Below, in pieces: positions 30,511 through 61,244 of a DNA stretch of 64,000 nt. The translations under genes and the position numbers were made by a program. Source of the stretch: Gammaproteobacteria bacterium (GTDB taxonomy: Bacteria > Pseudomonadota > Gammaproteobacteria > Pseudomonadales > Halieaceae); assembly GCA_003646405.1 (NCBI GenBank), contig QNFR01000002.1, positions 4,526-68,525 on the forward strand, given 5' to 3'. Below the pieces are notes generated by a model. It made no database searches and was not told the DNA's origin. It was given only the letters and a program-made list of their open reading frames with translations. The stretch's first letter is position 1, and every line of letters begins with the position of its first letter.

Positions 30511-32211
30511 AATCCTTACCAGGCAGGCTCCATGATCCCACTGACCCAGAGTTATTACAGCGGTGCGTCAAACACCCAGATTATCTACCAGACCATTGGG
30601 GACTATCTGGACCACATTTGCGCGCGTTTCCCCGACAATGAAGCACTGGTGGTGCCGCACCAGAATGTGCGCTGGACCTATGCCCGGTTCAAGCGTGAAA
30701 TCGACCGACTGGCCACCGGTCTGCTGGCCCTGGGCATACAACAGGGGGATCGGGTGGGCATCTGGGGGCCCAACAGCTTCGAGTGGGCGCTGGTGCAATA
30801 CGCCACCGCCAGGATCGGGGCCATCATGGTGTGTATCAACCCGGCCTACAGGCTGCACGAACTGGAATACGCCCTGAACAAGGTAGAGTGCCGCTCCATT
30901 GTCACCGCGGAGAGTTTCAAAACCAGCGAGTACCTGACGATGCTGCAGGAATTGGCGCCAGAGCTGGCGAGCTGTATGCCGGGCAAGCTCAAAGCACAAA
31001 AATTTCCACACCTGGAAACGGTTATCCGCATGGGGCAAGACGCCACATCCGGTATGCTGAATTTCTCCGATGTGTGTGACATGGGAACAGCTACGGAGTA
31101 TGCGCAACTGGATCAAATCAAAAGCACACTGCGCCCGGACGACCCGATCAACATCCAGTTCACCAGCGGCACCACCGGGTCGCCCAAGGGCGCTACGCTG
31201 ACCCATTGCAACATTCTTAACAACGGGTATCTGTGTGGCGTCAGCATGGGGTTCACCGACCAGGACCGGCTGTGCATACCGGTCCCCCTGTACCATTGTT
31301 TCGGTATGGTTATGGGCAACCTGGCCTGTCTGTCCCATGGGGCCACAGCCATTTATCCGGCTGCATCGTTTGACCCGGTAGCAACACTGCGCACCGTACA
31401 AGAGGAAAAATGCACAGGCTTGCACGGTGTGCCCACCATGTTTATCAACGAGTTGGATCACCCTCGGTTTGGTGAGTTTGATCTGTCCACACTACGCACC
31501 GGTATTATGGCCGGCGCGCCCTGCCCGGTTGAAGTCATGAATCGGATTATCGGCGATATGCATATGGAGGACATCCTGATCGGCTATGGCCAGACCGAAA
31601 CCAGCCCGATCAACCACATGACTCTGCCCGACGATTCCATAGAGAAGCGCACCGGGACAGTTGGCCGCGCGGTACCCTGGGTGGAGATAAAAATCACTGA
31701 CGAAAACGACCGCGTGCTGCCCATCGGTGAAAAAGGTGAAATCTGCGTACGCGGCTACTCGGTGATGCGCGGTTACTGGGACGACGAAGAGCGCAGCAGT
31801 GAAACCATAGACACTGCCGGCTGGTTGCATTCCGGCGATCTGGGTGTCCTGGATGGGGAAGGCTACATGCAGGTAGTCGGGCGCATCAAGGATATGGTTA
31901 TCCGCGGTGGCGAAAACGTCTACCCACGGGAAGTGGAGGAATATCTCCACACCCATGCAAAAATCGCCGAGGTGCAGGTATTCGGTGTCCCCGACCCGGA
32001 AATGGGTGAGGAAATCTGCGCCTGGATACAGCTATACCCGGGTGAGTCCATGAGCGCAGAACAGCTGAAGGATTTTTGCCACGACCAGATTACGCATTTC
32101 AAGATCCCGCGCTATGTGCGCTTTGTGGATGAGTTTCCGATGACCATCACCGGCAAGATCCAGAAGTTTGTGATGCGCGAGCAGATGGAGGCGGAGTTGG
32201 AGCCGGGTTAG
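30499..32211 (+). CDS. AMP-dependent acyl-CoA synthetase/ligase
   Basis: 570 aa. AMP-binding signature FTSGTTGSPKGA, GYGQTE, KIQK near the C-terminus. Confidence 0.85.
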   Translation: MAKHNPYQAGSMIPLTQSYYSGASNTQIIYQTIGDYLDHICARFPDNEALVVPHQNVRWTYARFKREIDRLATGLLALGIQQGDRVGIWGPNSFEWALVQYATARIGAIMVCINPAYRLHELEYALNKVECRSIVTAESFKTSEYLTMLQELAPELASCMPGKLKAQKFPHLETVIRMGQDATSGMLNFSDVCDMGTATEYAQLDQIKSTLRPDDPINIQFTSGTTGSPKGATLTHCNILNNGYLCGVSMGFTDQDRLCIPVPLYHCFGMVMGNLACLSHGATAIYPAASFDPVATLRTVQEEKCTGLHGVPTMFINELDHPRFGEFDLSTLRTGIMAGAPCPVEVMNRIIGDMHMEDILIGYGQTETSPINHMTLPDDSIEKRTGTVGRAVPWVEIKITDENDRVLPIGEKGEICVRGYSVMRGYWDDEERSSETIDTAGWLHSGDLGVLDGEGYMQVVGRIKDMVIRGGENVYPREVEEYLHTHAKIAEVQVFGVPDPEMGEEICAWIQLYPGESMSAEQLKDFCHDQITHFKIPRYVRFVDEFPMTITGKIQKFVMREQMEAELEPG

Positions 32212-52287: not shown

Positions 52288-53871
52288 CTATTGTTTGTCT
52301 TCAGGGCCCTCCTCCTCCGACCCCGGGCCTTCATCACCGCGGGCCCCACCCCGGTATTCCTCCATCAGGCGCCGCTTGTACAGCTTGCCATCGTCCATAC
52401 GCGGTAGCTCGGGGTGAAAATCCAGCGAACGGGGCATCTTGATATGGGAGATGCGCTCGCGCAGCCATTCCATGATCTCGATGGCCGTCTCGTCGGTGGC
52501 ATCAGCCCAGTTCATGGGCTGCACCACGACCTTCACCTGCTCCCCGAACTCCTCATGGGGGACCCCGAACACGGCGACATCGGCCACTTTGTCGTGGCTT
52601 GTCAGGATATTCTCGATCTCCTGGGGATAGATATTCACCCCGTCACTGATGATCATGAAGTTCTTGCGATCGGTGAGGTACACAAACCCCTCCTCATCCA
52701 CATAGCCCACATCGCCGGTGGTGGCCCAGCCCTTGTCGTTATAGGCGCCTGCAGTCTTTTCCGGCTCGCCGTGGTACTTGAATGCAGCCTGTTCTCCGCC
52801 GAAGTAAATGGTCCCTGTCTCACCCTGGGGCACTTCATTGCCGTCGTCGTCCACGATGTGTATTTCACCGACCAGGACGGGGCCCACCGAGCCCTTGTGT
52901 GTCAGCCAGCTGGCGGAGTCGATGATGGTGACACCAATGCCCTCACTGGCGGTGTAGTACTCGACGATCACCTCGCCCCACCACTTGATCATTCTCTCCT
53001 TGATCTCCACCGGGCATGGCGCAGTGGCGTGGATGGCAAACTGCATGGAACTCACATCGTAAGCGTCGCGCACTTCCCGGGGCAACTTCAGCATACGGAT
53101 AAACATAATGGGCACCCACTGGCTGTGGGTCACCCGATGCTCCTCAATAAGCTTGAGGGCCTGCTCCGGGGCGAACTGCTCCATCACTACCGTGGTGCCG
53201 CCCTGGTAGGTAACCATCATGTTGTAGTGCAGGGGCGCCGCGTGGTACAGGGGCGCCGGCGACAGGTACACCGTCTCGTCACTGAAGCCAAAAGCGGCAC
53301 CCATGGAGTCCACCAGGGGGGGCGGGGTATTCACATCGGTACTGGCCGGCGGCACAAAAACACCCTTGGGCTGCCCGGTAGTGCCCGAGGAATACACCAT
53401 CGGCACACCGTTACTCTCATCGTCTATGCGGGTCGTTGGCTGCGCATCCGTGGCCTCCTCCCAGGATTCAAAGCCGGGCTTGATGCCACCCACCATGTAA
53501 AAATGCTCCACACCGGTGGCCTCCGACAATACCTGCTCGGCGACACCCGCCAGTTTGAGTGAACCGATAAACAACTTCGCACCACAGTTTTGCAGAATAT
53601 AAGCGGTCTCCTCTTTACTCATGTGAGCGCTGAGCGGCGTGAAAATCAGGCCGGAACGCTGGCCCGCCCAGACGATCTCCAGGAATTCCCGGTTGTTTTC
53701 CATCATCATGCCGATATGGTCGCCACTCTTCAGGCCCAGGGAGCGGAACAGTTGAGCGCCCTGGTTGGAGCGTTCATCCAGTTGCTTGTAGGTGACGATT
53801 TCACCCGATTCTCCCATGATGATAGCGGCTTTGTGCGGGTAGGTCTCGGCGGTGATACTGGGGTGTGGCAT
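52288..53871 (-). CDS. AMP-dependent acyl-CoA synthetase
   Basis: 527 aa. YSSGTTGQPKGV signature, TGD..Y.DE.G, acidic/Gly C-terminal tail. Confidence 0.85.
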   Translation of the reverse strand: MPHPSITAETYPHKAAIIMGESGEIVTYKQLDERSNQGAQLFRSLGLKSGDHIGMMMENNREFLEIVWAGQRSGLIFTPLSAHMSKEETAYILQNCGAKLFIGSLKLAGVAEQVLSEATGVEHFYMVGGIKPGFESWEEATDAQPTTRIDDESNGVPMVYSSGTTGQPKGVFVPPASTDVNTPPPLVDSMGAAFGFSDETVYLSPAPLYHAAPLHYNMMVTYQGGTTVVMEQFAPEQALKLIEEHRVTHSQWVPIMFIRMLKLPREVRDAYDVSSMQFAIHATAPCPVEIKERMIKWWGEVIVEYYTASEGIGVTIIDSASWLTHKGSVGPVLVGEIHIVDDDGNEVPQGETGTIYFGGEQAAFKYHGEPEKTAGAYNDKGWATTGDVGYVDEEGFVYLTDRKNFMIISDGVNIYPQEIENILTSHDKVADVAVFGVPHEEFGEQVKVVVQPMNWADATDETAIEIMEWLRERISHIKMPRSLDFHPELPRMDDGKLYKRRLMEEYRGGARGDEGPGSEEEGPEDKQ

Positions 53872-53898
53872 GCTGTATTCCTTCCTGTTTATGCGTAT

Positions 53899-53936
53899 CC
53901 AGTGGACACTATAGAATTATGACGGGTAAAGTGACA
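53899..53936. repeat. degenerate third copy of the 28-nt element
   Basis: CCAGTGGACACT..(longer spacer)..CGGGTAAAGTGACA. The 11-mer CGGGTAAAGTG is identical to 36520-36530. Starts 28 nt upstream of the acyl-CoA synthetase start codon (53871, minus strand). Confidence 0.45.
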
Positions 53937-53941
53937 GGGCT

Positions 53942-54781
53942 TCAGCGAAAGCGCATAAGGCCCTGTTGCATGGTGGTCGCCACCAGGCGGCCTTCGCGGG
54001 TGTAGAAACTGCCCCGGGCCAGTCCCCGCCCCCCGCCAATGCGCTCGGCTGCCACCGTATGCAGCAGCCATTCATCAGCGCGAAAATCCTCATGAAACCA
54101 CAGGGCGTGATCCAGGCTGGCTACCTGCAGGTTCGAATTTACATAATGTCGCCCGTGGGTTATCAGACAAACATCCATGAGAAAGGCATCGGACAGGTAG
54201 GCCAGCAGGGCCTGGTGCAGGCCACGCGCATCGGGAACCGGCCTCATTGTCTTCATCCAGATCCGCAACACAGGCTCGCGCGATACCGGGTTGTCCCAAT
54301 CCACCGGTTCCACTACCCGGATATCCAGATCCTCCCCTGTGGTAATCATAAAACTTTCATCCAGATTGCCCGCCTCCAGGCCTAACTGTCGCTCACTGGA
54401 CAGCGCCTCCGGAGGCGGCACCCGGGGCATATCGGGTTGATAATCATCACCCGTGGCGGCTTGCTGGAAGGACAGGGTGCTGACCAGGATGGGCTTACCC
54501 CTCTGCAGGGCCACCACCCGCCGCGAACTGAAACTGAATCCATCCCTGGCCCGCTCCACCTCATAGTCGATAGGCCGGGTGGGGTCGCCCGGACGCAGGA
54601 AGTAGGCGTGCTGGGAGTGTATGCCGCGATCGACATCCACGGTCGCCACCGCGGCGCTGATCGCCTGCGCCAGCACTTGCCCACCGTACACACGGATGGT
54701 CTCAGGATGCATATTGTCACCCCTGAAGCGGTCTTGCCCTAAGGCCTGTGGCGTGATGACATGGAGCAGCTGGTCGAGCAT
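53942..54781 (-). CDS. tesB: acyl-CoA thioesterase II
   Basis: 279 aa. Double hot-dog TesB pattern (VYGGQVLAQA.., ..HSQHAYFLRPGD, SLDHALWFH). Confidence 0.85.
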   Translation of the reverse strand: MLDQLLHVITPQALGQDRFRGDNMHPETIRVYGGQVLAQAISAAVATVDVDRGIHSQHAYFLRPGDPTRPIDYEVERARDGFSFSSRRVVALQRGKPILVSTLSFQQAATGDDYQPDMPRVPPPEALSSERQLGLEAGNLDESFMITTGEDLDIRVVEPVDWDNPVSREPVLRIWMKTMRPVPDARGLHQALLAYLSDAFLMDVCLITHGRHYVNSNLQVASLDHALWFHEDFRADEWLLHTVAAERIGGGRGLARGSFYTREGRLVATTMQQGLMRFR

Positions 54782-54926
54782 CGGTACACCTTGTTCACAA
54801 AAGAGCCGCTATTATCCAGATTTCTGACCCCGTGCCAAACTAAGAATCAGGATTTAATATCGCGGCCGGGTGGTTATATTTGATATTCTCGGGCGACAGG
54901 TTTGTACCGACCACCAAGGAACCACG

Positions 54927-55709
54927 ATGAACAGCGCACTTTCTCCACTCGCACTGCGCCAGAAGGTCCGCGCCGGCGAGCACACAGGCGACACCTCCGG
55001 CTTCGCACCCGGCTTCGTACAATGCAATATCGTGATCCTGAGCGCCGACTGGGCCAACGACTTCCTGCGCTTTTGCCAGCTCAACCCCAAACCCTGCCCA
55101 TTGATCGGGGCCGGCGAGCCCGGCAATCCGGCGCTACCACTTTTGGGGGATATGGACATCCGCACCGACGTGCCAAGCTACCGCGTTTTTCGCGACGGCG
55201 AAATGACAGAAGAAATACCCGATATCACCAACTTGTGGCGCGACGATCTGGTAACTTTCGCCCTGGGTTGCTCATTCTCCTTCGAGGAGGCGCTATTGGC
55301 CGACGGCCTGGAAGTGCGCAATGTTACCGCGGGCGTGAACGTCCCCATGTACCGCACCAACATCGACTGCACAAGCGCCGGGCCTTTTGTCGGCAAAATG
55401 GTGGTCAGTATGCGCCCCTTCAAGGCGGCCGACGCCATACGCGCGGTGCAGATATGCACACGCTTTCCCTCGGTACACGGGGCACCGGTGCACCTGGGTG
55501 ACCCCGGACTCATTGGCATCAGTGATCTGGCCCTGCCGGATTACGGCGATGCGGTTAGTATCGAAGAAGGTGAAATGCCCGTATTCTGGGCCTGTGGCGT
55601 AACCCCGCAGGTTGCCCTGGAAGCGGCCAGGCCACCCTTTGCCATTACCCATAGCCCCGGGTGTATGCTGGTGACGGATTTACGCAACAGCCAACTGGCT
55701 GTCATGTAA
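54927..55709 (+). CDS. DUF1445/UPF0317 putative hydro-lyase (D-glutamate-cyclase C-terminal-domain homolog)
   Basis: ATG follows AAGGA. Reads [46 protein letters not shown], typical of the UPF0317 family. Confidence 0.8.
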
Positions 55710-55739
55710 GAACTATTTGAGTTGGCTCTAAGGAAAACT

Positions 55740-56471
55740 ATGTTACTCAACTGTGATCTGGGCGAGAGCTACGGCAGCTGGACCATGGGTCTGGACGCTG
55801 AGGTGATGCCCCATATCGACCAGGCCAATATCGCCTGTGGTTTCCACGGCGGCGACCCCCTGACCATACGCAAGACCCTGGCCCTGGCCGCCGAACACGG
55901 AGTGAATGTCGGCGCCCACCCCGCCTACCCCGACCTGGTCGGCTTCGGCCGTCGCCCCATGAACCTCAGCGCCGACGAAATCATCGCCAACCTGCACTAC
56001 CAGGTGGCTGCCCTGGAGGGTATGGCCAGCACTCAGGGACTGGCTCTGGACTACATCAAACCTCACGGCGCCTTGTATAACGACATGATGGCCAAGAGCG
56101 AAGTACGCGCCGCCATCATGCAGGCGGTGGCCAGTTATCACCGCCCACTGGCACTGATGTTACAGGCCACCCCGGAGACCGATAGTCACCGTACCGAAGC
56201 GGATAACTTTGGCGTGGGACTGATGTTCGAGGCCTTTGCTGATCGCTGCTACGACGACGACGGCAAGCTGCTGTCGCGAACCAAACCGGGCGCCGTCCAC
56301 GACCGGGAACATATGTTGGCACAGGTACACCAGTTACAGCGCGATAATACGATAACCACTGTGAGCGGCAATATCATTGAATTGCAGGCAGATACCCTCT
56401 GCGTGCACGGCGACAATCTCGAAGGGGTACAGGCCATACGGGCCATCCGCGCCCTGGTGGACGGGAGCTGA
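55740..56471 (+). CDS. pxpA: 5-oxoprolinase subunit A (LamB/YcsF family)
   Basis: MLLNCDLGESYG.W....D..VMP.I..ANIACGFHGGDP. Confidence 0.85.
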   Translation: MLLNCDLGESYGSWTMGLDAEVMPHIDQANIACGFHGGDPLTIRKTLALAAEHGVNVGAHPAYPDLVGFGRRPMNLSADEIIANLHYQVAALEGMASTQGLALDYIKPHGALYNDMMAKSEVRAAIMQAVASYHRPLALMLQATPETDSHRTEADNFGVGLMFEAFADRCYDDDGKLLSRTKPGAVHDREHMLAQVHQLQRDNTITTVSGNIIELQADTLCVHGDNLEGVQAIRAIRALVDGS

Positions 56472-56477
56472 AGCACC

Positions 56478-57158
56478 GTGGAACTTCATTCGGCCGGCGA
56501 AGATGCGATAATGTTGTATCTGGGGGAGGAAACCAGCCCCGAGGTATCCGCCCGCGTGCAGGCAGCGGCAGAGGCCATCAAACCGGCCCTTGGCGCGGAT
56601 CTGGTGGATCTGGTGCCATCTTACGCCTCACTGTTAATCATCTATGACGCCATGCACACAGATCACCTGAGTGTTGCCCATCGCGTGCGCACGGCCGTAG
56701 CTGCCTTGCAAACGAGATCCGGTACCGAGGGCCGTACCGTCGTGCTACCTGTGTACTACGCTGCCGAGGTAGGTGAAGATCTGGAGTCGCTGGCGCAGCG
56801 TGCAGGCCTGTCCACCGCGGAGGTCATCGCCCTGCACACAGGCACCGAGTACCGGGTTTACGCTATCGGCTTCGCCCCCGGTTTCGCCTATTTGGGACAG
56901 GTGGACGAACGCATCGCCGCACCGCGTCTGACCACGCCCAGGCAAAAAGTCCCCCGTGGCGCAGTGGCCATCGCCGATCGACAAACCGCCGTGTACCCGG
57001 CGGTGTCACCGGGAGGCTGGAACCTTATCGGCCGCTGCCCGGTGCGAATGTTCGACCCGGATACCGAACCCACCATGCCCGTCACAGTGGGCGACCGGGT
57101 ACGCTTCGAGCCGATCAGCCGTGAACGCTTTGTGGCGCTGGGAGGCGATCTGGCGTGA
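56478..57158 (+). CDS. pxpB: 5-oxoprolinase subunit B (KipI/allophanate hydrolase subunit 1 family)
   Basis: 226 aa. ..YRVYAIGFAPGFAYLG.. and ..GGWNLIGRCP motifs. Lies 6 nt after pxpA. Confidence 0.8.
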   Translation: MELHSAGEDAIMLYLGEETSPEVSARVQAAAEAIKPALGADLVDLVPSYASLLIIYDAMHTDHLSVAHRVRTAVAALQTRSGTEGRTVVLPVYYAAEVGEDLESLAQRAGLSTAEVIALHTGTEYRVYAIGFAPGFAYLGQVDERIAAPRLTTPRQKVPRGAVAIADRQTAVYPAVSPGGWNLIGRCPVRMFDPDTEPTMPVTVGDRVRFEPISRERFVALGGDLA

Positions 57159-58093
57159 GTTTCAAAATTGTACAACCGGGCATACTGAGTATGCTGCAGG
57201 ATAGCGGCAGGCGAGGCCGACAGCACATCGGGCTCACCAACGGTGGCCCCTTGGATCGCGAAGCTTTTTACTACTGCAACCGCTTGCTCGGCAACCCCGA
57301 AGGCAGCACCACCATTGAGGTCAGTTTTGGAGGCATGACGCTGCAAGCAGAGAACGATACATTTATTTGCGTTACCGGCGCCGACATGCCCTTGCGTATC
57401 AATGGCGAAGAACAGCCGCTATGGACAGTACTTGCGGTTGCGGCCGGAGACACCATCAGCCTGGATTTTGCCGAGAATGGCTGCCGCTCCTATCTGGGTG
57501 TGGCCGACGGATTTACTGTGCAGCCCAGTTTTGGCAGCACCGCCACCGTAATGCGAGAGAACATCGGCGGTTTACGCGGCGACAAACTGCACGCCGGCGA
57601 TCATCTGCCCTGCGCTGTAGTGCGCAAACGCAGGCGCTACCGCCTCGCCGCCGAGCAGCGGCCCCACTACCAGGATAGGATAACAGTGCGTGTCATCCCC
57701 GGTTACCAACAGCACCACTTCAGTCGTCTGCAACAGCGTCGTTTTTTTAGCCACGCCTACACAGTGTCCGATCGCTGCGATCGTATGGGCTACCGCCTGG
57801 AGGGTCCGGCTATCAAATGTGCGATCGAGGGTATCCTGTCAGAGGGTATCTGCTTTGGCGCCATTCAGGTGCCCGCCGATGGCCAGCCCATAGTCCTGTT
57901 GAATGATCGCCAGACCATCGGCGGTTATCCAAAAATTGGCTCGGCCCTGTCGCTGGATGCGTCGCGACTGGCGCAACTGCGGCCCGGTGGCACGGTACAT
58001 TTTGCCCCCATCACCCCCCACGGAGCACACAACGCCCTGCACCTGGCTCAGAGCTTTGCCCGTCGCCAACCCCTTTGGGAGCACCGGCCATGA
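57155..58093 (+). CDS. pxpC: 5-oxoprolinase subunit C (KipA/allophanate hydrolase subunit 2 family)
   Basis: 312 aa. ..QD.GR.G....G....GP.D, QTIGGYPKIG. 4-nt overlap with pxpB. Confidence 0.8.
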   Translation: MSFKIVQPGILSMLQDSGRRGRQHIGLTNGGPLDREAFYYCNRLLGNPEGSTTIEVSFGGMTLQAENDTFICVTGADMPLRINGEEQPLWTVLAVAAGDTISLDFAENGCRSYLGVADGFTVQPSFGSTATVMRENIGGLRGDKLHAGDHLPCAVVRKRRRYRLAAEQRPHYQDRITVRVIPGYQQHHFSRLQQRRFFSHAYTVSDRCDRMGYRLEGPAIKCAIEGILSEGICFGAIQVPADGQPIVLLNDRQTIGGYPKIGSALSLDASRLAQLRPGGTVHFAPITPHGAHNALHLAQSFARRQPLWEHRP

Positions 58094-58932
58094 ATGAACT
58101 CGAACTCAGTGTGGCCATTGAGGAAGTGCTGGTGGCACGCAACCCGCGGCACATGCGGGTGGCACGGGCCGCACTGGAGCCCGGCTATTATCTGCGCGGC
58201 GCGCGTCACCTGCACAATATTCAGGGCAATGTCATCATCGGCACCGGTTTTCCGGTGACTGCCACTTTCGAAACTGATGGCCCGGTGGGCGCCATCGCCC
58301 TGTATGACACACTGGAAGCGTTGGGGTCCCGGCCAATACTGGCCTGCGGCCCTCCCCTGTCCCGCGCACTGACCGATGATTATCGCGTACTGGAACTAAC
58401 CGCACGTAATCTTGAGGCCGCACAGCAAGAAGCGAACGAGCAACTGCTGGCATTCCAGCCCAGCGCCATTGTCTCTATTGAACGCCCGGGTCTGGCCGCC
58501 GACGGCCGCTACTACAATATGCGCGGCGAAGACATTACCGAGCGCTGTGCCTTCTTTGATCCTTTTATCGACAGCGCCGACTGCCCCACCATTGCCGTGG
58601 GTGACGGTGGTAACGAGATCGGTATGGGTAATATCAACAGGGCCATCGCCGACCTGGATATCAACCCCTCGGTCACCTGCTGTGACGAGTTGCTGGTGGC
58701 GGATGTATCCAATTGGGGAGCCTATGGCCTGATCGCTATCATCGCCAGTTGGACCGGGCTGGATCTGCTGGCGCAAATATCACCGGTTGAAATTCTGGAC
58801 TACCTCTCGGCCCGAGGCAGCGTCGACGGGGTCACCCGGGAAAACACCCTCACCGAGGATGGCCTGGAAGCGGAGGAAGGTTTGCGGGTTATCCAGGAGT
58901 TACGCGCATTGTCGGGATTTCTGGACGAGTGA
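58090..58932 (+). CDS. DUF4392 protein (D-glutamate-cyclase N-terminal-domain homolog)
   Basis: The ATG overlaps the pxpC stop (ATGA). Reads TGFPV....ETDGPVGA..L and GDGGNEIGMGN, as in DUF4392 proteins. Confidence 0.7.
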   Translation: MNELELSVAIEEVLVARNPRHMRVARAALEPGYYLRGARHLHNIQGNVIIGTGFPVTATFETDGPVGAIALYDTLEALGSRPILACGPPLSRALTDDYRVLELTARNLEAAQQEANEQLLAFQPSAIVSIERPGLAADGRYYNMRGEDITERCAFFDPFIDSADCPTIAVGDGGNEIGMGNINRAIADLDINPSVTCCDELLVADVSNWGAYGLIAIIASWTGLDLLAQISPVEILDYLSARGSVDGVTRENTLTEDGLEAEEGLRVIQELRALSGFLDE

Positions 58933-58978
58933 TTTTTTTGTAGTTTGTACTATCAATTTCTAACAAGGGGTGTAAACA

Positions 58979-59836
58979 ATGAGCATTGTATATTTAAACG
59001 GCGATTATATGCCAATGGAAGAAGCGCGTATTTCACCGATGGATCGCGGCTTCCTGTTTGGTGACGGTATCTATGAGGTGGTCCCCTCCTACGATGGCAA
59101 ACTGGTGGGCTTCGCCCCACATATGAAGCGTATGCAGGTCGGCCTGGATGCAATTGAGATCCAGCTGCACGTGGATCATCAGGCGTGGCGCTATATCACC
59201 AACGAACTGATAGAACGCAATGGCGGAGGCGATCTCGGTATTTATTTCCACATTAGCCGCGGTGCCGATACCAAGCGTCACCACGCCTACCCTGAAAGCA
59301 TAGCGCCCACGATTTATGCCTTCGCCTTCGAGATCCCCCCGGCACCGATACCCCGAAAGGACGCGGCAACCCCCTATACCGTGGCCACCGAAGAAGACCT
59401 GCGCTGGAAACGTTGCAATATAAAGTCCACCGCACTGCTCGGCAACGTAATGCACTATCAGCACGGTCATTCCCAGGGCCACAACGAGACTCTGCTTTAC
59501 AACCAGGATGGCGAACTCACCGAAGCCGCGGCCTGCAATGTCTATGTGATCAAAAATGGCATCGTCGCCACCCCCCTGCTGGATTACCAGAAACTCCCCG
59601 GCATTACCCGCCTTATGCTACTGGAAATCCTGCGTAAAGACGGCAGCATCGCCGTACAGGAACGGGTCGTCACCATGAAGGAACTGGAAAATGCCGACGA
59701 GGTGTGGATATCCAGCTCCAGCAAGGAAATTGCACCGGTCATCGAAATCGATGGCAAGCCAGTGGCAGACGGCTCGATCGGCGACGTATGGCTGGCAGCC
59801 CAGACCCTGTACTCCGCACACAAGTTCGATTTCTGA
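58979..59836 (+). CDS. dat: class IV (D-amino-acid) aminotransferase
   Basis: 285 aa. DRGFLFGDGIYEV, catalytic-Lys region RCNIKSTALL. D-amino-acid versus branched-chain specificity cannot be determined by eye. Confidence 0.7.
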   Translation: MSIVYLNGDYMPMEEARISPMDRGFLFGDGIYEVVPSYDGKLVGFAPHMKRMQVGLDAIEIQLHVDHQAWRYITNELIERNGGGDLGIYFHISRGADTKRHHAYPESIAPTIYAFAFEIPPAPIPRKDAATPYTVATEEDLRWKRCNIKSTALLGNVMHYQHGHSQGHNETLLYNQDGELTEAAACNVYVIKNGIVATPLLDYQKLPGITRLMLLEILRKDGSIAVQERVVTMKELENADEVWISSSSKEIAPVIEIDGKPVADGSIGDVWLAAQTLYSAHKFDF

Positions 59837-60921
59837 TGGCCAGACCCAACCAGGCCAGGCTGGATCTGGGCGCGCTGCGGCATAACCTCAGCGTGGCTCG
59901 AAAACTGGCACCCAACTCCAAAGTCTTGGCGGTGGTCAAAGCCAACGGCTACGGCCACGGTGCGGTCATCATCGCCCGGCAATTGGAAGCCCTGGCAGAC
60001 GCATTGGCGGTAGCCAGTATCGAGGAAGCGGTAGAGCTGCGTGATGCCGGCATCAGCGCCCCCATTCTGCTACTGGAAGGTGTATTCGAGGCAGAGGAGT
60101 TAGGCACCGCCGCACAACTGGGCTTCTGGATAACCATAGATAATGAGTGGCAACTGCGTTGGCTGGAGGAGGCGGTGCTGCCCGAGCCGGTACACTGCTG
60201 GCTCAAGGTGGACACGGGTATGCACCGGTTAGGTATAGCCCCTGGTCGGGCACAAGAATTTTACCAGCGTCTGAAGGCGACTGATAACGCCCTGGATGAC
60301 CTGGTGATATATACCCATTTCGCCTCGGCGGATGACCTGCAAAGTAGCCAGACCAAAGAGCAGCTTGAACTATTCGATGCGCTGTGCAAGCCGTTACCAG
60401 CGCAACTTAGCGCCGCCAACTCATCCGGGCTGCTGGCCTGGCCCGACGCCTGTTACGACTGGGTGCGCCCCGGTTACATGTTGTATGGCAATTCACCCCT
60501 GATCGAGGCGCATCCCAATGCGACAGCATTGCAGCCGGTGATGACCCTTACCTCGGCGGTAATTTCCCTGCGTGATGTGCCTGCCGGCGAAGCCGTGGGC
60601 TACGGTGCCAGCTGGATTGCCCGACGTCCATCACGCATAGCGACGGTAACGATCGGCTATGGCGATGGCTATCCACGCCTTGCGGCCAACGACACCCCGG
60701 TACTGATCAACGGCCAGCGCGCCAGTCTGGCGGGGCGGGTATCCATGGACATGATCACGGTGGATGTTACCGATTTGCCGGATGTACATGTGGGCGATGA
60801 GGTGGTGCTGTGGGGCAGAGGCTTACCCATGGCCGAGATCGCGCGCCACGCAGGCACTATCGGCTATGAGCTCACAACACGAATGCCGGCGCGCACACCC
60901 AGAGTCGTTATCATCGCATAG
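59836..60921 (+). CDS. alr: alanine racemase
   Basis: The ATG overlaps the dat stop (TGATG). PLP-Lys motif AVVKANGYGHG, ..SMDMITVD... 361 aa. Confidence 0.9.
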   Translation: MARPNQARLDLGALRHNLSVARKLAPNSKVLAVVKANGYGHGAVIIARQLEALADALAVASIEEAVELRDAGISAPILLLEGVFEAEELGTAAQLGFWITIDNEWQLRWLEEAVLPEPVHCWLKVDTGMHRLGIAPGRAQEFYQRLKATDNALDDLVIYTHFASADDLQSSQTKEQLELFDALCKPLPAQLSAANSSGLLAWPDACYDWVRPGYMLYGNSPLIEAHPNATALQPVMTLTSAVISLRDVPAGEAVGYGASWIARRPSRIATVTIGYGDGYPRLAANDTPVLINGQRASLAGRVSMDMITVDVTDLPDVHVGDEVVLWGRGLPMAEIARHAGTIGYELTTRMPARTPRVVIIA

Positions 60922-61197
60922 GGTTTCGATAAGGCCTTTCCATTCCAAATCTGGCTCTTGCGTGCCATGGCGGCCAGGCAATTTTGGGCGTTGTATCTGT
61001 CACATGAAATACAAGCTAATAAAAATGGCTGCTTGGCGAATACTAGATGTAGCGCAAACCCAATACACACTTCATTTATAAATTATAAAAAAACTGATGA
61101 TCACAGCGACCATAAGTTTTTTATATTGATTAGTGGAGAGAAGTTAGCCCGCAAGAAGAGGCTGGTGAAGCAGGGTTTCCTGGCCCACTAAAATCGC

Positions 61198-61232
61198 AAA
61201 AAAAAATGGCCGCCAGGAAATCTGGCGGCCAT
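61198..61232 (-). terminator. rho-independent terminator of the OmpA-family gene
   Basis: The minus strand reads ATGGCCGCCAG-ATTTC-CTGGCGGCCAT followed by T9, 13 nt after the stop codon. Confidence 0.75.
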
Positions 61233-61244
61233 TTACAGAGCCGA

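Follow-up and report, generated by a model that had tools for sequence, protein, structure and literature searches.

A conserved gammaproteobacterial operon joining split D-glutamate cyclase homologues to PxpABC-type oxoprolinase genes: a possible D-glutamate/5-oxo-D-proline module

In mammals, D-glutamate cyclase is, as the first-pass annotation had correctly stated, one polypeptide of a DUF1445 and a DUF4392 domain, the former N-terminal and the latter C-terminal (PMC5339696, PMC5132392), and the vertebrate fusion converts D-glutamate to 5-oxo-D-proline (PMC5339696). Whereas animals carry the two halves on a single chain, they are separate genes in the 64,000-nucleotide stretch of a marine Halieaceae gammaproteobacterium analysed here (the window), where they bracket the genes of a PxpABC-type oxoprolinase and are followed by a class IV aminotransferase and an alanine racemase gene. 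What could such an assortment be doing together? We propose, with a probability of roughly one half, that it forms a D-glutamate/5-oxo-D-proline module which is run catabolically.

The operon comprises seven genes on the + strand (54927-60921), in the order DUF1445, pxpA, pxpB, pxpC, DUF4392, class IV aminotransferase, alr. This order, the three start/stop overlaps and a largest gap of 46 nt had been read from the sequence before, and ORF and junction analysis bore them out. The overlaps measure 4 nt at pxpB/pxpC (GTGA) and at pxpC/DUF4392 (ATGA), and 1 nt at aminotransferase/alr (TGATG); the remaining gaps are of 12-30 nt (DUF1445/pxpA, according to the pxpA start chosen), 6 nt and 46 nt. Both flanks lie on the - strand, with a divergent TesB-like thioesterase gene upstream and a convergent OmpA/VWA protein gene downstream. 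Pfam matches of all seven proteins were far above the gathering cut-offs, and Pfam and NCBIfam HMM searches confirmed the DUF1445, DUF4392, LamB_YcsF, CT_C_D/CT_A_B and class IV aminotransferase assignments made earlier.

The DUF1445 protein (54927..55709, +; 260 aa; PF07286 D-Glu_cyclase, E 7.6e-66) belongs to the YcsI/UPF0317 family, named "putative hydro-lyase" in NCBIfam, and scores 410 bits against NF003969 (cut-off 324). Its PDB relatives 2PIF and 3DB9 (E about 1e-88) are both without assigned function. The DUF4392 protein (58090..58932, +; 280 aa; PF14336 GLUCM-like_C, E 8.1e-65), whose start was set from 280-aa database homologues, is homologous to the C-terminal half of the animal cyclase and to TON_0340, the structures of which (4DWZ, 5GKX) match it with E 4e-30. 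In the alignment, the six acidic residues with which TON_0340 binds metal (sites from PMC5132392) are all invariant in the window protein (E61, D63, E131, D172, E176, D257). The sole characterised member having both domains is specific for D-glutamate (PMC5339696).

PxpA (55722..56471, +; PF03746 LamB_YcsF, E 1.5e-88) likely starts at ATG 55740, which follows an AAGGA, rather than at 55722. Its best NCBIfam subfamily model is NF003816 (338 bits), and it reaches only 171 bits on the E. coli-type equivalog NF003812 (cut-off 378), where E. coli PxpA scores 512. PxpB (56478..57158, +; PF02682 CT_C_D, E 1.2e-71) passes its equivalog, TIGR00370, with 172 bits for a cut-off of 145.6. The PxpC-like protein (57155..58093, +; PF02626 CT_A_B, E 1e-86) passes the generic TIGR00724 (265 versus 230); on the PxpC_5OPro equivalog, where E. 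coli PxpC obtains 592 bits, it stays below the cut-off (226.6 versus 500). NF003816 is the best model for the transaminase-linked PxpA of Pseudoalteromonas and Porticoccaceae too, which we count in favour of the module proposed here. PxpABC paralogues of P. putida are known to have another lactam specificity, acting on butyrolactam instead of 5-oxoproline (bioRxiv 10.1101/2021.12.09.472016).

The aminotransferase (58979..59836, +; PF01063 Aminotran_4, E 1.5e-46) is a fold type IV enzyme of the D-amino-acid transaminase type. Its best NCBIfam models are D-amino-acid transaminases, with scores under the cut-offs (234.8 versus 320 and 219.4 versus 277). In the PDB search, the top nine matches were D-amino-acid or D-alanine aminotransferases (E 1e-45 to 1e-43), and the best branched-chain enzyme came at 2e-33. 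Aligned to the Bacillus YM-1 enzyme, its residues Y31, R98, H100, K145 and E177 correspond to Y32, R100, H102, K149 and a conserved E; the catalytic lysine and the carboxylate-binding Tyr/Arg/His set are retained. The "GSSS" loop reads "AAAC" in the window protein. D-amino-acid transaminases typically prefer the D-glutamate/D-alanine pair. The last gene (59836..60921, +; PF01168 and PF00842) encodes an alanine racemase which fits TIGR00492 (383 bits, cut-off 168) and misses the DadX exception model (344 versus 600).

Neighbour statistics were computed on 124 related loci with a DUF4392 identity of 40% or more and a sufficient stretch of sequence downstream. Among these loci, which are non-independent by kinship, DUF4392 is followed by the aminotransferase in 121 of 124 and preceded by pxpC in 114 of 116; DUF1445 is present in the 4 kb upstream in 97 of 98, and alr in the 3.3 kb downstream of DUF4392 in 95 of 106. 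The arrangement is not due to chance. The co-occurrence, which the first-pass annotation had singled out for a gene-neighbourhood check, is conserved well past one family. It is near-universal in Halieaceae, with an acyl-CoA synthetase gene and tesB upstream, and is also found in Cellvibrionaceae and Porticoccaceae and, shortened, in Pseudoalteromonas, with different flanks each time. In other marine gammaproteobacterial contigs, proS or an SLT transglycosylase gene stands upstream and Lrp/PutA downstream. On Pseudoalteromonas chromids, a NagZ-like GH3 gene is followed by DUF1445-pxpA-DUF4392-aminotransferase; pxpB and pxpC are absent from these clusters and alr is unannotated there.

That the split cyclase is coupled to PxpABC, physically or genetically, had been suggested from gene order, and natural fusions back it. 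Two independent contigs carry PxpC::DUF4392 fusions, and at least 21 protein clusters (90% identity) under the NCBI name Porticoccaceae contain them. In an AlphaFold2 model (pTM 0.85), the two halves of this fusion match E. coli YbgJK and TON_0340, and their mutual arrangement is predicted with confidence. PxpC is fused to DUF1445 at another locus (L175), and DUF4392::DUF1445 fusions occur in bacteria as well as in vertebrates, the bacterial single-chain cyclases being mostly stand-alone genes. At one locus (L176), a cyclase-Mur-ligase fusion adjoins an OPLAH/HyuAB-type oxoprolinase, which is non-homologous to Pxp. This pairing with an unrelated oxoprolinase argues that the coupling occurs via a common metabolite. 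Further DUF4392 fusions, to NlpC/P60 and to MurD-like or Mur-ligase domains, tie the family to peptidoglycan D-glutamate chemistry.

The coupling stood, but the two-subunit cyclase envisaged earlier, taken as a self-contained DUF1445+DUF4392 pair around PxpABC, is too simple a picture, since DUF1445 is widespread without DUF4392. On Klebsiella and L. plantarum plasmids, in Azospirillum and at the L175 locus, it accompanies PxpA/PxpBC while DUF4392 and D-amino-acid enzymes are absent. In B. subtilis, the operon pxpA-mntG-ycsI-pxpB-pxpC has DUF1445 (ycsI) and neither DUF4392 nor a D-amino-acid enzyme, and its PxpABC acts on 5-oxo-L-proline (PMC10448178, citing Niehaus 2017). Because it accompanies PxpABC without D-amino-acid enzymes, including in this 5-oxo-L-proline operon, DUF1445 is not diagnostic of D stereochemistry. 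DUF4392, unlike DUF1445, is the component that travels with the D-amino-acid transaminase.

In the module that we propose, PxpABC-type ATP-dependent lactam opening would operate jointly with DUF1445 and DUF4392, in one assembly or in directly consecutive steps, so that 5-oxo-D-proline, or a D-glutamyl compound via 5-oxo-D-proline, would yield D-glutamate. The transaminase would then convert D-glutamate and pyruvate to 2-oxoglutarate and D-alanine, and alanine racemase would turn the latter into L-alanine. D-glutamyl carbon and nitrogen would in this way reach central metabolism with no need for a glutamate racemase. The two substrates are proposed from what the mammalian homologue does and from the type of the transaminase; the D stereochemistry of the window PxpABC, the catabolic direction and the assignment of proteins to steps are what we infer. 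A cyclase of free D-glutamate and a D-specific oxoprolinase in one fusion would make a futile cycle, so the parts most likely act in a single direction, a point on which the first-pass annotation had taken no position. A divergent cluster (L165), in which DUF1445-pxpABC-DUF4392 is followed by a class III aminotransferase gene, with a convergent amidase gene just beyond, suggests lactam opening and then transamination of the product. Together with the ABC transporter, LysR regulator and chemoreceptor alongside the Azospirillum DUF1445-pxp cluster, this favours the catabolic direction. If true, bacteria would have a so far undescribed way of handling D-glutamate and its lactam, 5-oxo-D-proline: the component families are already known, and searches of the literature found no published description of the cluster.

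Several observations weigh against this catabolic module. Transaminase and racemase would serve the opposite direction equally well (L-alanine to D-alanine to D-glutamate). The Pseudoalteromonas clusters, devoid of pxpB and pxpC, indicate that the other parts can do without ATP-dependent opening encoded next to them. The aminotransferase, with its altered loop, scores under the curated cut-offs, membership in a PxpA subfamily is insufficient to fix specificity, and DUF1445 accompanies Pxp proteins in clusters devoid of DUF4392 or D-amino-acid enzymes. Domain annotation found neither transporter nor regulator among the window operon genes, and Porticoccaceae-type loci have housekeeping neighbours (proS, aspS, yebC), a setting that suits a constitutive or biosynthetic role no less than a catabolic one.

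Indeed, these last features, the near-universality in Halieaceae, the fit of alr to the general rather than the DadX model, and the established damage-control role of PxpABC (PMC10448178, citing Niehaus 2017) would all suit a biosynthetic or homeostatic operon, in which Alr and the transaminase supply D-alanine and D-glutamate for peptidoglycan while the cyclase halves and PxpABC buffer or mend the glutamate pools, recovering the 5-oxoproline of either enantiomer that arises from these. We hold this to be unlikely: co-expressing a D-glutamate-consuming cyclase with D-glutamate synthesis would be counterproductive, alr is missing from the 3.3 kb downstream of DUF4392 in 11 of 106 loci and is unannotated in the Pseudoalteromonas clusters, where a NagZ-like hydrolase gene stands instead, LysR is inserted in 9 loci, and the transporters, chemoreceptor, amidase or class III aminotransferase of related DUF1445-pxp clusters follow a catabolic logic. 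D-glutamate pools, moreover, are small relative to L-glutamate, and a five-gene repair set for 5-oxo-D-proline seems disproportionate to them.

The B. subtilis precedent raises another reading, that of an ordinary 5-oxo-L-prolinase with its common accessory DUF1445, merely adjoining DUF4392, transaminase and racemase and having only the glutamate node in common with them; neither a D-specific oxoprolinase nor a complex of the two sets would then exist. The many taxa in which DUF1445 accompanies Pxp proteins alone, the PxpB score over its equivalog cut-off and the mostly solitary single-chain cyclases, which would be independent of Pxp, speak for it. We nevertheless judge it quite improbable, given the abundance of PxpC::DUF4392 fusions and their confident inter-domain prediction, the overlap coupling DUF4392 translationally to pxpC in the window, and the pairing of cyclase domains with an OPLAH-type enzyme as well. 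In Pseudoalteromonas, DUF4392 directly follows pxpA without pxpBC. PxpA of the transaminase-linked clusters (window, Pseudoalteromonas, Porticoccaceae) is best on NF003816, not on the model of the characterised E. coli enzyme, and the window PxpC is below its equivalog.

A different lactam/D-amino-acid pair (for instance six-membered D-2-aminoadipate lactam, substituted pyroglutamate or D-glutamine-derived compounds), for which "D-glutamate cyclase" and "5-oxoprolinase" would be mere family labels, is suggested by the P. putida paralogues, by the sub-threshold aminotransferase with its altered loop and by distant DUF4392 proteins neighbouring SelA-like, aldehyde dehydrogenase, threonine dehydratase/RidA or class III aminotransferase genes, but is improbable in view of the D-glutamate specificity of the characterised two-domain enzyme, the usual preference of D-amino-acid transaminases, a racemase suited to the D-alanine co-product, and the NlpC/P60 and Mur-ligase fusions, which indicate D-glutamate.

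As for expression signals, the presumed promoter region is the divergent intergenic interval between the tesB-like gene (-) and the DUF1445 gene (54782..54926). No + strand sigma-70 match was found in it, the single consensus promoter match there being on the - strand (54838-54811); an AGGA lies 8 nt 5' of ATG 54927. Beyond alr, the AT-rich spacer before the convergent OmpA/VWA gene holds a strong GC-rich hairpin (61204..61234, -; 13 pairs, 8 of them G-C), around which GC content drops to about 0.50-0.54. A T-run comes after it on the - strand and an A-run before it on the + strand; its score makes it a terminator of the - strand gene, and it may serve the operon transcript in this way as well.

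The seven genes follow one another on the + strand between positions 54927 and 60921, and encode a DUF1445 protein (PF07286, D-Glu_cyclase; E value 7.6e-66), PxpA (PF03746, LamB_YcsF), PxpB (PF02682, CT_C_D), PxpC (PF02626, CT_A_B), a DUF4392 protein (PF14336, GLUCM-like_C; 8.1e-65), a class IV aminotransferase (PF01063) and an alanine racemase, Alr (PF01168 and PF00842). Pfam supported all seven assignments of the first-pass annotation, with E values from 1e-46 to 1e-88, and the junctions were as tight as it had described: pxpB/pxpC and pxpC/DUF4392 overlap by 4 nt, aminotransferase/alr by 1 nt, and the largest gap is 46 nt. The DUF4392 start at 58090 fits the 280-aa database homologues, and pxpA probably starts at the ATG at 55740 rather than at the TTG at 55722.

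Both flanks of the operon are occupied by genes of the opposite strand and of unrelated function. Upstream and divergent, on the - strand, are a TesB-like thioesterase gene and an acyl-CoA synthetase gene (FadD4-like, under cut-off; 52288-54781), and downstream, convergent, an OmpA/VWA protein gene; an RND pump, a patatin-like protein and an APH-like kinase are encoded farther out in the window. The spacer between alr and the OmpA/VWA gene (60922-61244, about 320 nt) is AT-rich, with a GC content of about 0.50-0.54 versus 0.59 in the operon, and at its end lies a strong hairpin (61204-61234; 13-bp stem, with an A-run and a T-run on its flanks) which, from its sequence, could be a bidirectional terminator. 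It was the sole match for the operon in promoter and terminator scans, which gave no + strand promoter. Neither a second pxpABC, nor murI, nor another alr was found within the 64-kb window. At 30628-32184 the window encodes another acyl-CoA synthetase, a paralogue of the first at 27% identity.

The operon holds both domains of animal D-glutamate cyclase, on two separate polypeptides. The vertebrate mitochondrial enzyme DGLUCY (C14orf159; EC 4.2.1.48) consists of DUF1445 followed by DUF4392 and converts D-Glu to 5-oxo-D-proline, the interconversion of these two compounds having been demonstrated for the mouse enzyme only (PMC5339696). DGLUCY is a single chain which acts alone and does not need ATP, whereas in the window the halves of the putative cyclase are separate genes 2.4 kb apart, pxpABC lies between them, and DUF4392 is translationally coupled to PxpC. 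The likeness extends beyond the presence of PF07286 and PF14336, as the metal-binding acidic residues of DUF4392 are kept (PMC5339696, PMC5132392). These residues are described in TON_0340, a stand-alone archaeal DUF4392 protein with a binuclear Mn/Mg site of six acidic residues (E59, D61, E115, D157, E161 and D246) and a weak phosphatase activity (PMC5132392). Those of the window protein (E61, D63, E131, D172, E176 and D257) were invariant in a 9-sequence alignment, by which the binuclear site of the fold is judged intact. The window DUF1445 scored above the NCBIfam ‘putative hydro-lyase’ equivalog (410 versus 324), and NCBI already names such proteins ‘putative hydro-lyase’ and ‘glutamate cyclase domain-containing protein’; all components of the operon belong to known families. 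To our knowledge, a function has not been established for any bacterial DUF1445 or DUF4392 protein, despite the long-deposited structures of DUF1445 (2PIF and 3DB9, with no function assigned) and of TON_0340.

The three Pxp families are adjacent and on the same strand (Pfam E values from 1e-71 to 1e-88), the same subunit families being clustered in E. coli (ybgJKL) and B. subtilis too, and we regard the window set as a putative oxoprolinase. PxpB exceeded its NCBIfam equivalog cut-off (172 versus 145.6). PxpA was under the cut-off of all three equivalogs and over subfamily models only (NF003816, 338 versus 213; NF003814, 285.6 versus 226), and PxpC was under the PxpC equivalog (226.6 versus 500, E. 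coli PxpC scoring 592). The best model of the transaminase-linked PxpA proteins, those of the window, Pseudoalteromonas and Porticoccaceae, was NF003816, whereas E. coli PxpA falls in NF003812 and the PxpA of other DUF1445 clusters in NF003813 or NF003814, a grouping that would fit a distinct specificity. In prokaryotes PxpABC is the ATP-dependent 5-oxo-L-prolinase, and the B. subtilis operon is ordered pxpA-mntG-ycsI-pxpB-pxpC (PMC10448178). As the JGI label for PF07286 proteins is ‘YcsI (UPF0317 family)’, ycsI is a DUF1445 gene, and the two operons have this gene in common (PMC10448178). Characterised PxpABC enzymes act on 5-oxo-L-proline, and the window operon differs from the known ones in its A-B-C order, in the cyclase halves on both sides and the D-amino-acid enzymes that follow, and in having no NRAMP transporter gene.

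The aminotransferase is putatively of the D-amino-acid transaminase type (fold type IV, EC 2.6.1.21). Its nine best PDB matches were all D-amino-acid or D-alanine aminotransferases (1e-45 to 1e-43), compared with 2e-33 for the best branched-chain enzyme. The best NCBIfam models were D-amino-acid transaminases, with scores under the cut-offs (NF005209, 234.8 versus 320; TIGR01121, 219.4 versus 277.45); the Pseudoalteromonas orthologue was likewise under both (249.9 and 249.8). In the alignment to the Bacillus YM-1 enzyme (3DAA), K149, a conserved Glu, and Y32, R100 and H102 correspond to what we take to be the catalytic Lys (K145), the cofactor contact (E177) and the carboxylate trap (Y31/R98/H100) of the reference, and the neighbouring GSSS loop reads AAAC. 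Alr has the Lys motif VVKANGYGHG and scored well above TIGR00492 (383 bits versus 168), without reaching the DadX model.

Almost all of the 80 best genomic loci for DUF4392 are from Halieaceae (Halioglobus, Haliea, Parahaliea and others), and nearly all have the same seven genes and, upstream, the same acs/tesB pair, the acyl-CoA synthetase and TesB-like genes being syntenic across most loci of the family. Halieaceae-only loci with identical flanks could be a matter of inherited synteny, and are weak evidence alone. Conservation by family-level inheritance only was rejected, because a profile-based metagenome scan and a plasmid collection gave changed flanks and rearranged forms. In the metagenome scan the full gene order was recovered down to 42-45% DUF4392 identity, with proS or an SLT transglycosylase gene upstream and Lrp/AsnC and PutA genes downstream. 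Nine of the Cellvibrionaceae-like loci carry an inserted LysR-family gene of the same orientation, which separates DUF4392 from the aminotransferase gene (for instance at 8887-9810 of L067). Two loci from metagenome-assembled genomes, labelled Psychromonas (L005) and Bacteroidia (L030), encode a Halieaceae-like DUF4392 (76% and 67% identity), L030 with the full operon; these taxon labels are probably binning errors in public records.

The first-pass annotation had proposed that a split cyclase is coupled to PxpABC, and the co-occurrence expected from this held in a neighbourhood count, at DUF4392 identities of at least 40% and with different flanks. At this threshold, in loci that are phylogenetically non-independent, the aminotransferase followed DUF4392 in 121 of 124 cases and pxpC preceded it in 114 of 116, 97 of 98 had DUF1445 no more than 4 kb upstream, and 95 of 106 had alr within 3.3 kb downstream of DUF4392. 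A shortened cluster is found on three Pseudoalteromonas chromids (L081, L088 and L089) and, in the same form, in two metagenomic loci: a NagZ-like GH3 gene, DUF1445, pxpA, DUF4392 and the aminotransferase gene, with no pxpB, pxpC or alr. The GH3 protein (605 aa) has the beta-N-acetylhexosaminidase NagZ as its best model, at 190 bits for a cut-off of 207. A tblastn search of plasmids with PxpC gave 868 records, and the Pseudoalteromonas chromids did not appear in the 60 best. The shortened cluster is divergent from a gene for a 955-aa FAD/Fe-S protein resembling the D-2-hydroxyglutarate dehydrogenase YdiJ and GlcD, and a gene with a heparan-alpha-glucosaminide N-acetyltransferase domain is nearby. 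Below 40% identity, DUF1445 and DUF4392 adjoin without Pxp genes in six contigs, and another locus (L165) has DUF1445-pxpABC-DUF4392, then a class III aminotransferase gene and, just past it, a convergent amidase gene.

Natural fusions link the same components. Two contigs, independent of each other, have pxpC and DUF4392 joined in a single ORF (L149, 7038-8807, 589 aa; L150, 1033-2790, 585 aa) with PF02626 and PF14336. At 90% identity, such PxpC::DUF4392 proteins (P0121-P0141; 584-607 aa) fall into at least 21 clusters, many of which comprise hundreds of sequences; NCBI attributes them to Porticoccaceae, and they are abundant among marine metagenomes. AlphaFold2 run on their alignment gave a mean pLDDT of 86.7 and a pTM of 0.85, which suggests that the modelled fusion has a defined inter-domain arrangement; by Foldseek, its N-terminal half matched E. 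coli YbgJK (5DUD) and its C-terminal half TON_0340. A further contig (L175, 105-4882) encodes PxpB, a PxpC::DUF1445 fusion, PxpA and an NRAMP transporter, with no DUF4392 in the cluster, and single-chain DUF4392::DUF1445 proteins are numerous in bacteria (Clostridia, Gemmataceae, Acidaminobacter). Every pair among PxpC, DUF1445 and DUF4392 is therefore fused somewhere. Among the proteins listed, five are four-domain fusions of 864-945 aa with a Mur ligase between DUF4392 and DUF1445. In L176 (2725-9799) a 1400-aa HyuA/HyuB (OPLAH-type) oxoprolinase-like gene, of a type with no relation to PxpABC, lies directly upstream of such a fusion, of 932 aa, and a convergent Peptidase_M32 gene on the opposite strand comes next. 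The cyclase domains are thus found with both known kinds of ATP-dependent oxoprolinase. In a set of representative proteins (P0330, P0343, P0347, P0271, P0275, P0283 and P0297), DUF4392 is also fused to NlpC/P60, a cell-wall endopeptidase family, and to MurD-like_N and SAM methyltransferase domains, and a stretch of DUF4392 is part of two giant proteins (2571 and 3710 aa).

DUF1445 is also found outside D-amino-acid contexts. It stands beside PxpA on Klebsiella and Enterobacter plasmids (with NRAMP, a PxpBC fusion and biotin carboxylase) and adjoins PxpA on an L. plantarum plasmid. On an Azospirillum oryzae plasmid (L181, NZ_CP054616.1, 68789-80791) the order is LysR, Liv-type ABC transporter, DUF1445, solute-binding protein, pxpB, pxpC, methyl-accepting chemotaxis protein, pxpA, which looks like an inducible cluster for uptake, chemotaxis and catabolism of some lactam. 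None of these clusters contains DUF4392, nor do they encode a class IV aminotransferase; it is DUF4392 that accompanies the D-amino-acid transaminase. We rejected the idea that DUF1445 or DUF4392 is a 5-oxoproline racemase, since the product of the mouse two-domain enzyme is the D lactam (PMC5339696) and a D-amino-acid transaminase would be superfluous on a racemase route.

A cyclase acting on free D-Glu together with an oxoprolinase remaking D-Glu would form a futile cycle, worse if the two were fused, so that one-way action of the operon proteins is the most likely case. We put at about one half the probability that this direction is catabolic, from a lactam or D-glutamyl compound through D-Glu to 2-oxoglutarate. 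Three features argue for it: DUF4392 is constantly followed by a D-amino-acid-type transaminase, a parallel cluster ends in a class III aminotransferase, and one DUF1445-pxp cluster bears a transporter and a chemoreceptor. The lactam or D-glutamyl compound would yield D-Glu, which the transaminase would convert with pyruvate to 2-oxoglutarate and D-Ala, and alanine racemase would dispose of the D-Ala made from pyruvate. Rather than being catabolic, the operon could serve the biosynthesis or homeostasis of D-Ala and D-Glu, as its housekeeping neighbours and its lack of a transporter or regulator would suggest; we hold this to be unlikely. That an ordinary L-oxoprolinase merely sits next to D-amino-acid enzymes is disfavoured by the natural fusions and appears quite improbable. 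P. putida offers a precedent for paralogous PxpABC sets with distinct lactam substrates, both catabolic: a butyrolactam hydrolase (PP_2920-2) and a 5-oxoprolinase (PP_4575-7), with achiral or L substrates and no DUF1445, DUF4392 or D-amino-acid transaminase partners reported (bioRxiv 10.1101/2021.12.09.472016). That the window module acts on a different lactam and D-amino-acid pair appears quite improbable.

Within the catabolic reading, DUF1445 and DUF4392 may be subunits which lend the Pxp machine its D specificity, or they may perform a prior cyclotransferase step on gamma-D-glutamyl compounds, in a mirror image of the gamma-glutamyl cycle. Fusions and neighbours with a relation to peptidoglycan (NlpC/P60, Mur ligase, NagZ-like GH3, SLT, Peptidase_M32) hint at the latter. 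In its full form, DUF1445/DUF4392 would free 5-oxo-D-proline from the gamma-D-glutamyl compounds of peptidoglycan or from D-Glu, and this would be channelled directly into a D-specific, ATP-dependent 5-oxoprolinase made up of a separate PxpABC subfamily and the resulting D-Glu transaminated; the channelling would be physical, considering the PxpC::DUF4392 and PxpC::DUF1445 fusions. This scheme is tentative, and we give it only a small chance. It resembles the pair formed by gamma-glutamylcyclotransferase and OPLAH, in which a cyclising enzyme makes 5-oxoproline and an ATP-dependent enzyme reopens it, and in L176 the cyclase domains are paired with an OPLAH-type enzyme. Save for that enzyme the protein families differ, and the stereochemistry, known to be L in the gamma-glutamyl cycle, would here be D. 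If the scheme is true, its 5-oxoprolinase would be the first with D specificity, and bacteria would have a new way to recycle the D-glutamate of cell walls in the ocean.

We are aware of few bacterial routes for D-Glu, and of no enzyme that reopens 5-oxo-D-proline. The routes include glutamate racemase MurI and the D-amino-acid dehydrogenase DguA/DadA, and an N-acetylation/racemisation pathway, DgcN-DgcA, reportedly operates in marine Proteobacteria. All address the same ecological problem, the use or balance of peptidoglycan-derived D-Glu at sea, but none of them is known to use 5-oxoproline, Pxp proteins or cyclase domains. The operon and its relatives, with their fusions and the OPLAH-type replacement of PxpABC, provide a hypothesis on D-Glu routes, on DUF1445/DUF4392 function and on 5-oxo-D-proline reopening, which is specific, directly testable and, as far as comparison of sequences goes, well supported. 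It concerns Halieaceae (OM60/NOR5) and Porticoccaceae (SAR92), two clades that are abundant along coasts, and bears on the respective roles of the two domains of human D-glutamate cyclase. A search of the accessible literature, which does not prove absence, found no study of bacterial DUF1445/DUF4392 proteins, of their PxpABC link or of bacterial 5-oxo-D-proline metabolism. A curated D-amino-acid gene study mentions neither cyclase nor oxoproline (PMC12363236), and a preprint counts split GLUCM homologues in six gut species, which its supplement does not include (PMC11580864).

DUF4392 genes on rhizobial and Burkholderia plasmids were rejected as orthologues: they are about 30% identical, have no link to Pxp or DUF1445, and neighbour SelA-like, aldehyde dehydrogenase, dehydratase/RidA and transporter genes. 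Those of Sinorhizobium (L084), Bradyrhizobium (L086) and Paraburkholderia (L087) belong to a separate, uncharacterised system, in which each cluster holds a pair of DUF4392 paralogues of greater length (about 335-377 aa). The pair flanks a gene annotated ‘selenocysteine synthase’ (SelA-like) in L084 and L087, and hypothetical genes in L086. All three clusters have an aldehyde dehydrogenase and an NAD(P) oxidoreductase, together with amino-acid ABC transporters in L084 and L086 and an MFS transporter in L087.
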